Below, in pieces: positions 53,187-61,051 of a stretch of 64,000 nt of DNA. The translations under genes were made by a program, and so were the position numbers. The DNA is taken from the NCBI GenBank assembly GCA_965223155.1, contig CBDCVR010000015.1, forward strand, positions 480,001-544,000, in the 5' to 3' direction. This DNA is from Candidatus Multivoradales bacterium (GTDB lineage: Bacteria > Acidobacteriota > Thermoanaerobaculia > Multivoradales > JAHEKO01). Below the pieces are notes generated by a model, which was not told where the DNA came from, ran no database searches, and was given only the letters and a program-made list of their open reading frames with translations. Every line of letters begins with the position of its first letter. Position 1 is the first letter of the stretch.

Positions 53187-53999
53187 GTGCCCGCCCCAAC
53201 CGCGTCTTTGCCGGACGCCGATCGCAGGACTCGCAAGGACTCACCCGAGCTATCGATCGTCGTTCCTATTTCCAACGAACTCGAGAGTCTCGAGCCTCTG
53301 GTGGACGAGATCGCCGGCGCGATATCCAGAACCCATAACTGGGAGCTGTTGCTAGTGGACGACGGCAGCAGCGATGGCTCACTCGAGCGAATGACGGCTC
53401 TCGCCAAGCGGATCCCGGAGATCCGGATCATCCATCATCCCCAGAACCTGGGCCAGTCCGCAGCTCTAGCATCAGGCTTCGCTCGCGTTCGCGGCCGAAT
53501 CGTGATTACGTTGGACGGCGACCTTCAGAACGATCCTGCCGACATTCCGATGTTGCTGGCGGAGCTTGACGGTTGCGACGTCGTCTGTGGCGTCCGCCGC
53601 CGGCGCCAAGACCGCTGGCCCAAGCGAGCCGCGTCGCGAGTCGCCAACCGCGTCCGCAACTTCGTCACCGGCGAATCGATCGAAGACGTCGGGTGTTCAC
53701 TACGAGCCTACCGCGCCGAGGTGTTGACCGGACTTCGTCCCTTTGACGGGATGCACCGATTCCTGCCGACCCTGCTGAAGCTCAACGGAGCCCGGGTCCG
53801 GCAGCTCCCGGTCAGCCACCGCCCGCGCAGATTCGGCGCCAGCAAGTACGGCATCGCAAACCGGCTTTGCCGCAGCTTGGTAGATCTAGCCGGCGTCGTC
53901 TGGTTACAGCACCGCTGGATCGATCTCTCTCTGGCCCGCGAGATGCCAACAGCCCGGGAACCGGCGCCTTCGCCATCCGTTCACCGCCACCTCGGGTAA
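53187..53999 (+). CDS. GT2 polyprenol-phosphate glycosyltransferase (ArnC/DPM-like)
   Basis: LSIVVP..NE, VDDGSSDGS, LDGDLQNDP, MHRFLP, HRPRRFGASKY. Confidence 0.92.
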   Translation: MPAPTASLPDADRRTRKDSPELSIVVPISNELESLEPLVDEIAGAISRTHNWELLLVDDGSSDGSLERMTALAKRIPEIRIIHHPQNLGQSAALASGFARVRGRIVITLDGDLQNDPADIPMLLAELDGCDVVCGVRRRRQDRWPKRAASRVANRVRNFVTGESIEDVGCSLRAYRAEVLTGLRPFDGMHRFLPTLLKLNGARVRQLPVSHRPRRFGASKYGIANRLCRSLVDLAGVVWLQHRWIDLSLAREMPTAREPAPSPSVHRHLG

Positions 54000-54009
54000 A
54001 CCCCACGAA

Positions 54010-54312
54010 ATGGAGTCGCAAATGTCGTCCGACCCCTACTGGCTCTCCATCGGCTTTGCCGGACAGGCGTGCTTCTTCACCAGATTCCTGGTGCAATGGA
54101 TTGCCTCGGAACGGCAGAGACAAAGTGTCATTCCGGTGGCCTTCTGGTACTTGAGTCTCGTCGGGGGATTGACGCTACTCGCCTACGCAATTCACCGGCG
54201 TGACCCAGTCTTCATCGCCGGGCAGGCAGTGGGCTTCTTGGTCTACAGCCGCAATCTCTGGTTTCTCCGTCGCGATCAAGGCGCGGCAACGGAGACAGCG
54301 GCGCGATCCTAG
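54010..54312 (+). CDS. Lipid-A-disaccharide synthase N-terminal (LAB_N) domain membrane protein
   Basis: GFAGQACFFTRFLVQWIASE..SVIPVAFWYLS..DPVFIAGQ..YSRNL. Confidence 0.9.
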   Translation: MESQMSSDPYWLSIGFAGQACFFTRFLVQWIASERQRQSVIPVAFWYLSLVGGLTLLAYAIHRRDPVFIAGQAVGFLVYSRNLWFLRRDQGAATETAARS

Positions 54313-57580: not shown

Positions 57581-57655
57581 CCGCCTTTCACTCAGGCGCT
57601 GAACACCGGGCGGGAGTGGACCCGATATGGTGACTCGCAACAACGGAGCGAAGCA

Positions 57656-58981
57656 GTGAGTCTGACCCTGGCGATCTTGGCCGGGCTGGCGACAGCTGCG
57701 GTTCTCTGGTTTCTGATCCGGCTGGCGACCCAGCGGAGCAAGCTCGCCCGCAGCCTGGCCTTCCCGCTCCACGTCGGTGCCTTCGTCGCCGGCCTCGAGG
57801 TCTTCTCGCTGTTCGAGATCCCGAGAGTGCGGGCGGCCGTCCCGCAACTGGATCTCGTCTTGTCGGCGGTCTTCGTTTTCTTGATCGCGGTGGTGGCGCT
57901 CCGGTTGCTGGCTCTCCTCTTCTTCGATCTCTACCTGCATGCGACCCAAGGCGTGCGGTTGCCACCCCTGCTGCCGCGAGTGGTCACCGGCTTCGCCTAC
58001 CTGATCGGCGCCCTGGTGGTAGTCAAGCTCTTCTGGCCCGAACAAGAGATGGGCGCCCTGGTCGCCACCAGCGCGGTTACTTCTCTGGTCCTGGGTCTCG
58101 CGCTGCAACCGATTCTGGGGAACTTCTTCGCCGGCATCGTAATCAGCCTGGAGAAGCCCTTCCGGATCAACGACTGGATCCTGTTTCAGGACACCGAGGC
58201 CCGGGTGGTCGAGATCAACTGGCGCACCACGCACCTGCGCACCCGCGACAACGACAATCTGGTGATCCCGAACGGGATGATCGCCAACGAGCAGATCACC
58301 AACTTCTTCTATCCCCATCCCCTGCACCTGGAACGGATCTACGTCGGGGTCCACTACAAGACGCCTCCGTACCGGGTCAAGCAAGCGATCCTGGACGCCA
58401 TCGCCGAGGTTCCGAGCATCCTCGAAAAGCCGTCGCCGGAGGTCTATCTCCACTCCTTCGACGACAGCGCCATCACCTACGAGGTCCGCATCTGGATCGA
58501 GGACATTGCCCACCGACCCCGCATCTCGAGTCATCTCAAGAGCATGATCTGGGAGAAGTTCCAGCGCCGGCACATCACCATCCCGTATCCCATTCGGACC
58601 CTGGAGATCGAGCCCGCCCGCGGCCAGCTTGAACTGGTGCGGGGGCAGCGCCGGCAGATCGACGAGATCGGCGAAACCGCCTTCCCGGCCAAGCTCTTCG
58701 TCGCCCGCGGTCCCGATCGCGGCCGCACCGTCGCCTTGCGGGGAACGGACGTCACCGTCGGACGGTCCGGCGAATCGGATCTAGTCCTGACCGAGGCCCG
58801 GGCCAGCGGCAACCACTTTTCCGTCGTCTGGCAGCCGGAGATAGGGTACGAGATCCAGGACAACGAAAGCCGCAACGGCACCCTAGTCAACGAACAGCCG
58901 ATCGAGACCCAGGTGCTCGCGCACCTCGACCGCGTCCAGATCGGCGAAACCGTCATCGTCTTCGAGTCGAGCCATGTCTGA
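57656..58981 (+). CDS. MscS-family mechanosensitive channel with C-terminal FHA domain
   Basis: LGLALQPILGNFFAG, KPFRINDWI, INWRTT, IPN, IPYP, then FHA motifs VGR...SGNH...NGT...DRVQIG. Confidence 0.9.
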   Translation: MSLTLAILAGLATAAVLWFLIRLATQRSKLARSLAFPLHVGAFVAGLEVFSLFEIPRVRAAVPQLDLVLSAVFVFLIAVVALRLLALLFFDLYLHATQGVRLPPLLPRVVTGFAYLIGALVVVKLFWPEQEMGALVATSAVTSLVLGLALQPILGNFFAGIVISLEKPFRINDWILFQDTEARVVEINWRTTHLRTRDNDNLVIPNGMIANEQITNFFYPHPLHLERIYVGVHYKTPPYRVKQAILDAIAEVPSILEKPSPEVYLHSFDDSAITYEVRIWIEDIAHRPRISSHLKSMIWEKFQRRHITIPYPIRTLEIEPARGQLELVRGQRRQIDEIGETAFPAKLFVARGPDRGRTVALRGTDVTVGRSGESDLVLTEARASGNHFSVVWQPEIGYEIQDNESRNGTLVNEQPIETQVLAHLDRVQIGETVIVFESSHV

Positions 58982-60893
58982 AGAAACACATCCACGCCGC
59001 ATCGGCCAATACGAGATCCTGGGCGTCATCGGCAAGGGCGCCATGGGCAAGGTCTACAAGGGCGTCCAGCCGTCGCTCAATAGGATCGTCGCCATCAAGG
59101 TCCTACCGCCAGAGCTCGCCGACGACGAGCGAGTCGAGCGCTTTAGCCGCGAAGCCAAAGCGGTAGCGCTCTTGAACCACCCCAACGTGGTCCAAATCAT
59201 CGACAAGGACCAGGACGGGGACCAGGTCTTCTTCGTCATGGAGTACGTCGCCGGCACCTCGCTCGAGGCCGTGATGCGCAAGCGGCGGTTGTCGCTGCCC
59301 GAGGCAGTTCGTGTCTTCAAAGCCGTCTGCCGGGGCATGGCCGCCGCCCACAAGAAAGAGATCGTCCATCGGGACCTTTCGCCCCGGAACGTGCTTGTGA
59401 CCGAGGACCTGCTGACCGCCAAGATCGCCGACTTCGGGATCAGCCGGGTGGAGTCCATCTCGCGCGAGATGGGCACGCTGTCGACCAGCGAAGTGAGCAT
59501 GGGCACGCTTCACTACATGGCTCCGGAGCAGGCGCAGGACATGGCGTCCTCGGATCACCGAAGCGACATCTACTCCTTGGGAGTCTTGCTCTACGAGATG
59601 CTGACCGGCCGGGTACCGGTTGGCCGCTTCAGCCTGCCCAGCCAGCTCAACTCGGAGGTTCCCCCCGAGGTCGATCCTGTCGTCCTCCGCTGCCTGGAGG
59701 CCGACCCGGCCGACCGCTATCAGGAGGTCTCAAAGCTCCTGGCCGACGTCGAGCGGCTGGAAGACCACCTCAAGCTGGGCCTGGTCAACGAGGTCCGTGG
59801 TCTGTCCCAGTCGACCTCCAAGATCATCATCAAGTCGGCCAGAACCCGGGCCGTGCAAATTGCCGTCGGCCTCGCCGTTCTCGCGGGACTGGCCGCGGCC
59901 GGCGTCTGGATCGTGCGCAGCAAGGCTCCCGAGCCGGTACCGACCGCGGGCGGCGACGCGCTAGTGGCGGTCAAGCAGGACCGCTCCGGACTCAAGGAGC
60001 GGGAGGATCGCTTACCGGCGCTCGTCGATTTGGACGTCCCCGAATCCTCGGTCCCGACCGAGGATGCCGAAGAGGCCACCGTCCAAGTCGAGACCCCGGT
60101 CAAGACGCAGCAACCAGCGGCGCGAGGCGAGACCGAAGCCGAAGCGAACGAGCGCCGGGCGGCGGCAGCTCTAGAGGGCGCGATCGCCAGGATGAACGGC
60201 CAGGAATGGGATCGGGCGATCGGCGAGTTGGATGCGCTGATGGCAAGCGAACCGCCGGCGAGCATCGGCCGCCAGGCATTGCTTCTGCTCGGCAAGGCGC
60301 ACGAGCGCAAGCGTGACGACGGCAAGGCCCGGACGGCCTATCTCGACCTGGATCGCCGCTACCCGGGCAGCACCGAGGCCGCCGAAGGTCTCTACCGGTT
60401 GGCTTCCAAGCTCCAGAAGCAAGGTGGGCGTGACCGATTGCGGGAGGCCCGGACCTATCTGGACAAGATCGCGAACGACTACTCCTCCTCCAACTGGGCG
60501 CCCAGGGCCTTGATCGACAAGGCCGTCATCGAGAAGGACGCCAAGTGGCACGTCGACGATCCCGTCCTGAAGGCCCGGGTTCCGGCAGCCCTCGTCAGCT
60601 ACCGCCAGTTCGTCGCCAAGTACCCCAGCCACGCCCAGGCACCGATGGCGCTCAACGCCCTCGGCGATCTCTACGAGGACGAGAAACTGCCGGCCAAGGC
60701 GGCGGCCACGTTCGAGACCCTGGCCAGGCGATTCCCCGCCAATCCCTACGACGCCTGGTGGAAGGCCGCGCAGGTCTACGACCGGCGCCTGGACCAGTTC
60801 GACAAGGCGATCACAGCCTACGAAAACGTGCCGAAATCCTCGAAACGCTTCCCGGACGCGCAGCGACGGATCGTCCGCTTGAAGCGCAAGTAG
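58974..60893 (+). CDS. Hanks-type Ser/Thr protein kinase with a TM helix and C-terminal TPR region
   Basis: GKGAMG, VAIK, HRDLSPRN, DFG, GTLHYMAPE, SDIYSLG; TM helix; TPRs with YP.S..A repeats. 8-nt overlap with the upstream gene. Confidence 0.93.
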   Translation: MSEETHPRRIGQYEILGVIGKGAMGKVYKGVQPSLNRIVAIKVLPPELADDERVERFSREAKAVALLNHPNVVQIIDKDQDGDQVFFVMEYVAGTSLEAVMRKRRLSLPEAVRVFKAVCRGMAAAHKKEIVHRDLSPRNVLVTEDLLTAKIADFGISRVESISREMGTLSTSEVSMGTLHYMAPEQAQDMASSDHRSDIYSLGVLLYEMLTGRVPVGRFSLPSQLNSEVPPEVDPVVLRCLEADPADRYQEVSKLLADVERLEDHLKLGLVNEVRGLSQSTSKIIIKSARTRAVQIAVGLAVLAGLAAAGVWIVRSKAPEPVPTAGGDALVAVKQDRSGLKEREDRLPALVDLDVPESSVPTEDAEEATVQVETPVKTQQPAARGETEAEANERRAAAALEGAIARMNGQEWDRAIGELDALMASEPPASIGRQALLLLGKAHERKRDDGKARTAYLDLDRRYPGSTEAAEGLYRLASKLQKQGGRDRLREARTYLDKIANDYSSSNWAPRALIDKAVIEKDAKWHVDDPVLKARVPAALVSYRQFVAKYPSHAQAPMALNALGDLYEDEKLPAKAAATFETLARRFPANPYDAWWKAAQVYDRRLDQFDKAITAYENVPKSSKRFPDAQRRIVRLKRK

Positions 60894-60987: not shown

Positions 60988-61023
60988 AATAAGAAACGGC
61001 CGGCCCCGAAACGGGACCGGCCG
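60988..61023 (-). terminator. Rho-independent terminator for the minus-strand lipoprotein/cytochrome operon
   Basis: The minus strand reads CGGCCGGTCCCG-TTT-CGGGGCCGGCCG followed by TTTCTTATT. Confidence 0.7.
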
Positions 61024-61051
61024 CATCGAACTGTGGGAACTGATCGGTAGC

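Follow-up and report, generated by a model that had tools for sequence, protein, structure and literature searches.

A conserved MscS-type channel with a forkhead-associated domain and its adjacent kinase or pseudokinase in Acidobacteriota: a candidate unit for phospho-dependent channel regulation

We describe a pair of genes in a 64,000-nucleotide stretch of the genome of a Candidatus Multivoradales bacterium of the phylum Acidobacteriota (hereafter the window, G000:C15:480001-544000, from a genome of 4.0 Mb on 15 contigs). The first gene encodes a mechanosensitive channel of the MscS superfamily that ends in a forkhead-associated (FHA) domain, and the second encodes a membrane-anchored Ser/Thr kinase of the Hanks type. 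Together, these two same-strand open reading frames (ORFs) occupy positions 57656-60893, where an earlier, sequence-only reading of the window had placed them. The pair is a conserved unit, and the genes that flank it are not conserved. We propose that the kinase, or the predicted pseudokinase found in its place in many relatives, regulates the channel as a phospho-dependent subunit by docking on its ring of FHA domains. For binding of this kind, with an effect on gating, we see the case as evenly balanced. The fusion of MscS and FHA domains is already visible in databases as automatic annotation (an atlas cluster of 62 members), yet it is uncharacterised, and the unit is real, conserved and testable.

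The two genes are physically interlocked. The kinase ATG lies within the last codons and stop of the channel gene, forming an 8-nt overlap, ATGTCTGA (58974..58981, plus strand), just as first read, and the overlap suggests that the two genes are translationally coupled. The sequence-only reading had staked its proposal on the pair being conserved, and it is. All 19 testable loci found by whole-genome searches have a kinase homologue immediately behind the channel gene in the same orientation (two further loci end about 100 nt past the channel and were left out as untestable); in L015 and L016 the N-lobe alone was matched, at about 30%. A scan of one genome per species returned 195 related stretches. 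Our counts on related loci (L024-L103) refer to the best 80 of these 195 genome records, all of which are labelled Acidobacteriota (Thermoanaerobaculia, Holophagae/Holophagales or 'Candidatus Multivoradales'). Two of the 80 end 96 nt past the channel, which leaves 78 testable, and in 77 of these a kinase-homologous ORF starts between -20 and +50 nt from the channel stop. Counted among the 77 is L054 (L054:5217-6265), where the kinase is split into ORFs of 90 and 258 amino acids. The exception is L098 (L098:5306-6952), where an alpha/beta-hydrolase gene has been inserted between the pair and the kinase stands 2.9 kb further on. Stop and start overlap in about 60 of the 78 loci, with start codons picked by a heuristic. 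The surroundings behave differently: seven of the eight neighbours of the pair in the window match none of the 80 related loci, and the eighth matches three. Since the window genome has only 17 Pkinase matches in 4.0 Mb, a kinase would rarely stand behind a given gene by chance.

Further, the channel tree and the kinase tree both separate a set of 26 rows, consisting of 24 long and two short partner kinases (SH-aLRT 99 in each; the two classes are described below), and pairwise identities of the channel and kinase proteins rise together (r = 0.87). These patterns clearly point to two genes inherited together, in a unit that has held down to about 46% channel identity. Full-length orthologues with the FHA domain occur in 10 of 40 relatives, at 46-60% identity, in none of four genomes of the same genus, and in 13 of 401 genomes from an even sample of the phylum, G000 included. 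The tallies for the 40 relatives and the 401 genomes include three genomes flagged as unpublished (G005, G063 and G088). The channel match of L011 (G012) and that of L022 (G201) each run over two frames, pointing to a frameshift or to a fault of assembly. G050 has two channel copies (L013 and L023), 55-56% identical to the window protein. Their contigs are short, at 1.5-2.0 kb, and break off about 100 nt past the stop; the copies may reflect either a duplication or different strains binned together from a metagenome.

The kinase gene (58974..60893, plus strand) encodes 639 amino acids, with a Pkinase match of 164.5 bits and a PknB-type model covering residues 11-266. It had been credited with every catalytic motif. 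This holds for the beta3 Lys (K42), the alphaC Glu (E60), the HRD Asp (D134), the loop Asn (N139), the Asp of D153-F-G and the Glu of A-P-E185, which together mark a Hanks-type kinase fold, but it does not hold for the catalytic-loop Lys, which is absent. The activation segment from DFG to APE (residues 153-185; 59430..59528, plus strand) includes T168 and T171 in the partner alignment. Its loop, GTLSTSEVSMGT at residues 167-178, is indeed rich in Thr and Ser, and it is not common to the 16 other kinases of the genome. The single transmembrane (TM) helix reported earlier is recovered by a hydropathy scan at residues 296-314 (59859..59915, plus strand), and a TM segment stands at the same place in all complete partner kinases except that of L040.

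An acidic, Ala- and Pro-rich spacer follows the TM segment, and the protein ends in an extracytoplasmic TPR domain (residues 392-639; 60147..60890, plus strand; TPR_6 50 bits). The description of this domain as a BamD/CpoB-like array is upheld as a resemblance. A profile of 23 ectodomains run against solved structures finds CpoB (6g5s, 5.6e-13), YbgF (2xev, 4.7e-9) and BamD (5waq, 6.2e-9). The AlphaFold2 model of the ectodomain (pLDDT 97.4) is nearly all helix with two short strands, and a Foldseek search with it places BamD (3qky) first and generic TPR proteins next. Scores nevertheless fall under the curated NCBIfam cut-offs, at 65 against 90.1 bits for CpoB/YbgF (TIGR02795) and 52.2 against 81.4 bits for BamD (TIGR03302). 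By these measures the ectodomain is a related domain of the TPR_6 type, CpoB/BamD-like by resemblance and not an equivalog.

Partner kinases across the family fall into two classes. Our alignment holds 72 of them, namely the window's and 71 other complete ones, with seven excluded: L054, L098 and five truncated at the end of a contig. The long class, to which the window kinase belongs, comprises 24 of the 72 rows at 431-679 amino acids, and 19 of these 24 keep K42, D134, N139 and D153. TPR_6 also matches 24 of the 72 rows, although these matches and the long class were not paired row by row. The short class makes up the other 48 rows, at 305-376 amino acids; its members, tail-anchored proteins of about 310 amino acids, end right after the TM helix. 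At least one of the same four residues is missing from 46 of the 48: the HRD Asp is replaced by Ser, His or another residue, and DFG often reads DLG, EFG or GFG. These 46 partners are therefore predicted pseudokinases. In the kinase tree, long and short classes lie on opposite sides of a well-supported branch.

Two threonines persist across this divide. T168 and T171 are each kept in 69 of the 72 partners, catalytic and non-catalytic alike, and position 174, at +3 of T171, carries an aliphatic residue (I, M, L or V) in 67 of the 72. Besides T211, a structural residue of the LTG motif, they are the only threonines within residues 1-300 to be kept in at least 60 of the 72 rows. Given the split between classes, what is conserved family-wide is a kinase-fold partner with two activation-loop threonines, and neither kinase activity nor a TPR sensor. 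As read from sequence, the common element of all pairs is an FHA domain fit for phosphate opposite a membrane-anchored kinase fold in which, catalytic or not, the two threonines persist.

The upstream gene (57656..58981, plus strand) begins with a GTG, at a start position shared by its homologues, and encodes 441 amino acids. Domain matches and predicted topology confirm it as a five-TM channel of the MscS/YnaI type with a C-terminal FHA domain. The earlier claim of a complete MscS core is right for the core domains: MS_channel_2nd (PF00924, residues 153-217, 78.5 bits) and MS_channel_3rd (PF21082, residues 228-309, 48 bits) both score over cut-off. It needs amending in the membrane, where the hydropathy scan predicts five hydrophobic segments and not three (residues 3-21, 34-52, 72-90, 109-127 and 132-150; 57662..58105, plus strand). 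The last of these corresponds to the pore-lining helix of the TM3 type and carries the motif GLALQPILGN, which is nearly invariant: residues 147-154 and 156 are invariant or close to it, and G155 is Gly in 59 of 81 sequences. A TM3-type pore helix followed by the PF00924 beta-domain and the PF21082 alpha/beta domain places the protein in the MscS superfamily.

Structural comparisons agree with this assignment. The beta-domain and the alpha/beta domain (residues 153-309; 58112..58582, plus strand) make up the cytoplasmic cage. Among solved structures, the channel matches MscS (7dlu, E 2.6e-24) and also MscM and MscK, while residues 5-278 align to the five-TM channel YnaI. Foldseek searches with the channel model return YnaI, MscK and MscS at E ~1e-15. 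Solved MscS channels among these matches are heptamers, and the protein described here is presumably heptameric too. The AlphaFold2 model, built on 22 relatives, has a mean pLDDT of 81.3, with a confident beta-sandwich at residues 345-438 and disorder at residues 312-337. This disordered segment (58589..58666, plus strand) would form a flexible linker between cage and FHA domain; its pLDDT is below 50, and in the alignment the relatives vary along it and for the most part have gaps.

The FHA domain itself (residues 345-438; 58688..58969, plus strand) is modelled with beta strands at pLDDT 88-92. The Pfam FHA family (PF00498) matches residues 366-430 at 52.2 bits, against a cut-off of 20.7. The G-R, S-x-x-H and N-G residues of FHA domains have roles in phosphate binding. 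The sequence-only reading held that the phosphothreonine-binding residues are kept, and the translation bears this out with G369-R370, S384-x-x-H387, N407-G408-T409 and N412. All 81 channels have G369, R370, H387, G408, T409 and N412, and 79 of them have S384. The nearest solved FHA domains are those of the phosphothreonine binders GarA, OdhI and Rv1747 (6cah, E 1.2e-7). Judged by the conservation of its residues, the domain is fit to bind phosphate, and phosphothreonine binding is predicted. The hydropathy topology puts both the FHA domain and the kinase domain on the cytoplasmic side.

The nearest relatives of the channel core, in our searches, are the cyclic-nucleotide-gated bCNG channels, and the FHA domain occupies the place of their nucleotide sensor. 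A search of 1.84 billion representatives found 709 proteins at E <= 1e-30. The best 150 of the 709 were classified with hidden Markov models from Pfam-verified examples, and they comprise 114 proteins with MscS and cNMP_binding domains, 14 with MscS and FHA domains, and 22 with neither. Most of these 22 are shorter than full-length channels and may be fragments. The bCNG relatives are 32-40% identical over the core. A profile of MscS-FHA proteins matches 131 of the 401 genomes in the phylum sample at E <= 1e-55, and the matches reach the FHA part in the same 13 genomes only; the remaining 118 stop earlier. All seven of the next-best Acidobacteriota relatives that were checked carry cNMP_binding (PF00027) at the same C-terminal place. 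The window channel has no PF00027 match and has an FHA domain at that position, which makes it a sister form of the bCNG channels rather than one of them. In a tree of the core alone, 11 FHA-bearing rows stand on one side of a branch and 60 cNMP rows on the other (SH-aLRT 79, not strong), and the FHA-bearing channels may have a single origin.

More distant proteins of this architecture (P0128, P0135, P0139, P0141, P0142 and P0173) are 33-43% identical to the family. Their lineages were not seen in the 401-genome sample, where FHA-reaching matches came only from the 13 core-family genomes. A metagenome scan placed a kinase homologue downstream in six of seven FHA-bearing loci. Four of these loci (L134 and L137-L139) have short-class partners like those of the core family, and only L132 (55% to P0135) and L135 (43%) represent other lineages. 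L136 gave no kinase match in its 198 nt of downstream sequence. As for the sister form, bCNG-type channels (MscS plus cNMP_binding, ~480-560 amino acids; L115-L131) look common in Acidobacteriota, with 118 of the 401 genomes matching without the FHA part. A 2026 review describes bCNG channels as mostly cyanobacterial (PMC13591265).

We propose that channel and partner form one functional unit. A heptameric channel of the MscS/YnaI type would hold seven FHA domains on flexible linkers below its cytoplasmic cage, and the co-translated kinase would sit in the same membrane by its one TM helix. The periplasmic CpoB/BamD-like TPR domain would read the state of the envelope, and the kinase would autophosphorylate its activation loop at T168 and/or T171. 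The FHA domains of the channel would then bind the phosphorylated threonine. The usual FHA ligand is pT-x-x-aliphatic, and T171-x-x-V174 fits this pattern. Docked under the cage, and possibly phosphorylating the channel, the kinase would alter gating or clustering. In the short class, where catalysis is lost and the two threonines are kept, the partner would be a phospho-switchable regulatory subunit marked by another kinase. Such docking would have a parallel in the sister bCNG channels, in which a cyclic nucleotide presumably acts through the cNMP-binding domain that stands in this place. A bolder version would make MscS-FHA channels phosphothreonine-gated: either a dedicated membrane-anchored kinase or, for the majority of lineages, a pseudokinase that other enzymes phosphorylate would act as a switchable subunit, plugging its phosphorylated activation loop into the FHA ring and so setting the opening threshold. 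We regard this version as possible but doubtful.

What the sequence-only reading observed is confirmed, and its interpretation is partly supported. The chain from TPR sensing through autophosphorylation to FHA docking is applicable at most to the minority class that includes the window (24 of 72 partners); as a general scheme its sensor step cannot hold, because 48 of the 72 partners have no ectodomain. Several further observations weigh against the docking proposal. In the catalytic loop, HRDLSPRN, the Lys of HRD-L-K-P-x-N is missing, so that kinase activity is an assumption. Of the 16 other kinases of the genome, 15 have this Lys and one reads HRDVSPRN, and in the partner alignment the commonest residues at its position are N (26 rows), T (26), S (10), W (4), D (3) and H (2), with K not among them. 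R138, at D+4 of the loop, resembles the Tyr-kinase pattern. In the FHA domain, the Asn of N-G-T (N407) is shared by just 21 of the 81 channels. Because the genomes compared are kin to one another, the synteny counts are not independent events. With 16 other kinases, four other FHA matches and a PP2C elsewhere in the genome, cross-talk is possible.

The channel tail also contains T315-x-x-I318, a possible alternative FHA ligand in cis, with Thr present in 76 of 81 sequences. We rejected this candidate: Thr occupies the same position in 23 of 60 cNMP relatives, so T315 is probably structural. A complex prediction of kinase residues 1-292 with FHA residues 335-441, with alignments supplied, scored 0.00 in both runs and counts neither for nor against docking; controls were not folded, and a phospho-dependent contact is perhaps beyond the method.

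The roles within the pair could also be reversed, with the channel as sensor and the kinase as output. Tension would then move the cage and its seven FHA domains, gathering or releasing kinases and thereby controlling trans-autophosphorylation and downstream signalling. Where the partner has no extracytoplasmic domain, as in 48 of 72 cases, the channel alone has an evident sensing function, and a heptamer of the kind known from solved MscS structures would offer seven docking sites. However, 46 of those 48 short partners are without the catalytic residues needed to pass a signal on by phosphorylation, the kinase of the window class has a TPR ectodomain of its own, and the FHA domain stands where the bCNG relatives have an input domain, their cNMP-binding domain. 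On this evidence we judge the reversed arrangement unlikely.

Alternatively, the two genes might be co-expressed without their products ever touching. The FHA domain would bind the phosphothreonine of a third protein, and the kinase would merely be co-regulated or would phosphorylate that protein. The genome has partners enough for such an arrangement, with 17 Hanks kinases (Pkinase matches over cut-off), five FHA matches and one PP2C phosphatase. Against it stand the adjacency of the pair at 77 of the 78 and all 19 testable loci, mostly with a stop-start overlap and without conserved flanks, the match between channel and kinase trees, and the retention of T168 and T171 even in non-catalytic partners, all of which make it quite improbable. 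Least probable is a phospho-independent, ring-forming FHA-like fold that extends the cage, as in YscD/SctD of type III secretion: Pfam Yop-YscD_cpl does score about as well as FHA on the C-terminal domain (53.1 against 52.2 bits) and N407 is variable, but G-R and S-x-x-H are kept with hardly an exception across 81 sequences, the nearest solved relatives bind phosphothreonine, and a 26-residue disordered linker is ill-suited to a rigid ring.

Docking of the kinase or pseudokinase on the FHA ring is the reading we prefer, and the unit may be a pressure-release channel under the control of protein phosphorylation. On the bolder version, if true, MscS-FHA channels would be a protein-ligand counterpart of the cyclic-nucleotide-gated bCNG channels, and they would directly connect Hanks-kinase signalling with a bacterial ion or osmolyte channel for the first time. 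The unit can be cloned and supplies two soluble domains together with two candidate phosphosites, so that phosphorylation control of a bacterial channel becomes directly testable. Further, catalytic and non-catalytic partners on the same type of channel amount to a natural experiment on the function of bacterial pseudokinases, whose roles are largely unexplored according to a 2025 review (PMC12599244). The control of MscS-like channels with extra domains, and their wider roles beyond emergency release of osmolytes, are likewise poorly explored (PMC13591265).

The immediate surroundings of the pair add details of expression. The sequence GGAG lies about 9 nt 5′ of the channel GTG. A 10-codon upstream ORF (ATG...TGA; 57627-57659, plus strand) ends in GTGA, its stop overlapping the channel GTG, and could be a coupling leader or a product of chance. 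A promoter scan found no sigma-70-like promoter upstream, a scan that is uninformative for this phylum. No RNA dataset is listed for the locus, and its DNA is present in four runs of one study. Between the kinase gene and the convergent gene downstream lies a 13-bp GC-rich hairpin (60996..61024), a terminator-like site found on the minus strand, with a putative role on the plus strand. The flanking genes, a divergent CtaA gene upstream and the convergent gene with a CarboxypepD_reg domain downstream, are unrelated to the pair.

No third conserved component was found: clustering of the flanking ORFs of L024-L103 gave lineage-local neighbours only, among them DinB_2 (25 loci), a short-chain dehydrogenase (24), GGDEF-EAL (17) and an aldo-keto reductase (14). 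The largest flanking cluster (42 loci) was discarded, its representative ORF in L028 being antisense to real DinB and carbonic-anhydrase genes. Neither a recurring phosphatase nor a second FHA gene appeared among these flanking ORFs. The GGDEF-EAL gene, encoding a second-messenger protein, stands 3′ of a short partner kinase on the same strand in 17 of the 80 loci (e.g. L061:6151-8205) and is lineage-local. A family-2 glycosyltransferase gene directly follows the broken kinase of L054. In the window, positions 53187-54312 (plus strand) contain another such gene, followed by a gene for a 100-amino-acid protein with LAB_N (the lipid A biosynthesis N-terminal domain).

Two further observations concern other kinases of the same genome, outside the window. 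The kinase that reads HRDVSPRN lies at G000:C14:1135903-1136736. On the same contig, a second FHA match at G000:C14:480120-480308 (open frame of 746 amino acids) stands about 2 kb upstream of a Hanks kinase at G000:C14:482252-483019 (open frame of 897 amino acids, same strand), and the two may be another FHA-kinase pair.

As the sequence-only reading had supposed, the literature search, with supplements outside its scope, turned up no publication on an MscS-FHA protein or on an MscS channel paired with a kinase. Three retrieved papers (PMC13463886, PMC2754498 and PMC10734462) combine the terms by chance. The words FHA, forkhead, kinase and phosphoryl do not occur in the 2026 review of MscS-like channels (PMC13591265), and mechanosensitive, MscS and Acidobacter do not occur in the 2025 review of bacterial pseudokinases (PMC12599244). 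The pseudokinase families CP1, DYD and DLHK that the latter describes belong to other taxa and contexts (PMC12599244).

Among characterised systems, the unit would appear to work most like Rv1747 and PknF, and also like MviN and FhaA. Rv1747 of Mycobacterium tuberculosis is an FHA-bearing membrane transporter modulated by PknF, a Hanks kinase of the same operon (PMC3138270, PMC3908365, PMC10906006). Both systems pair an FHA-bearing transporter with an adjacent, co-oriented kinase gene, an arrangement present here, with an 8-nt overlap in the window and with adjacency recurring at 77 of the 78 and all 19 testable related loci. They differ in that Rv1747 is an ABC exporter with two N-terminal FHA domains per chain, whereas the protein described here is an MscS channel with a C-terminal one. 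To our knowledge, PknF has no TPR ectodomain. In mycobacteria, the pseudokinase domain of MviN (MurJ) is phosphorylated by PknB and then recruits FhaA (PMC12599244). It offers the nearest precedent for the 46 partners without catalytic residues. There, however, transporter and pseudokinase share one chain and the FHA protein stands apart, whereas here the FHA domain is joined to the channel and it is the kinase or pseudokinase that forms a protein of its own; moreover, the partner in the window keeps its catalytic residues.

The remaining comparisons concern single parts of the unit. The bCNG channels, whose roles and gating are poorly understood (PMC13591265), share a multi-TM MscS core and a ligand-binding domain at the same position after MS_channel_3rd. 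They have cNMP_binding where the present family has FHA, and the presumed ligand here is not a small molecule but a phosphoprotein, the product of the next gene. YnaI, MscS, MscK and MscM of Escherichia coli share the MscS fold and, in the case of YnaI, the five-TM layout, but they have neither an FHA domain nor a partner kinase and are ~20-25% identical in Foldseek alignments. CpoB (YbgF) and BamD are the best solved relatives of the ectodomain and have the same TPR_6-type repeats; in the window kinase, by contrast, the repeats are fused to a kinase through a TM helix and score under the equivalog cut-offs. Finally, plant MSL10 is a channel of the MscS family whose function is influenced by N-terminal phosphorylation sites (bioRxiv 10.1101/726521). 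It is eukaryotic, with no FHA domain and no dedicated adjacent kinase, and its regulated output is cell-death signalling.

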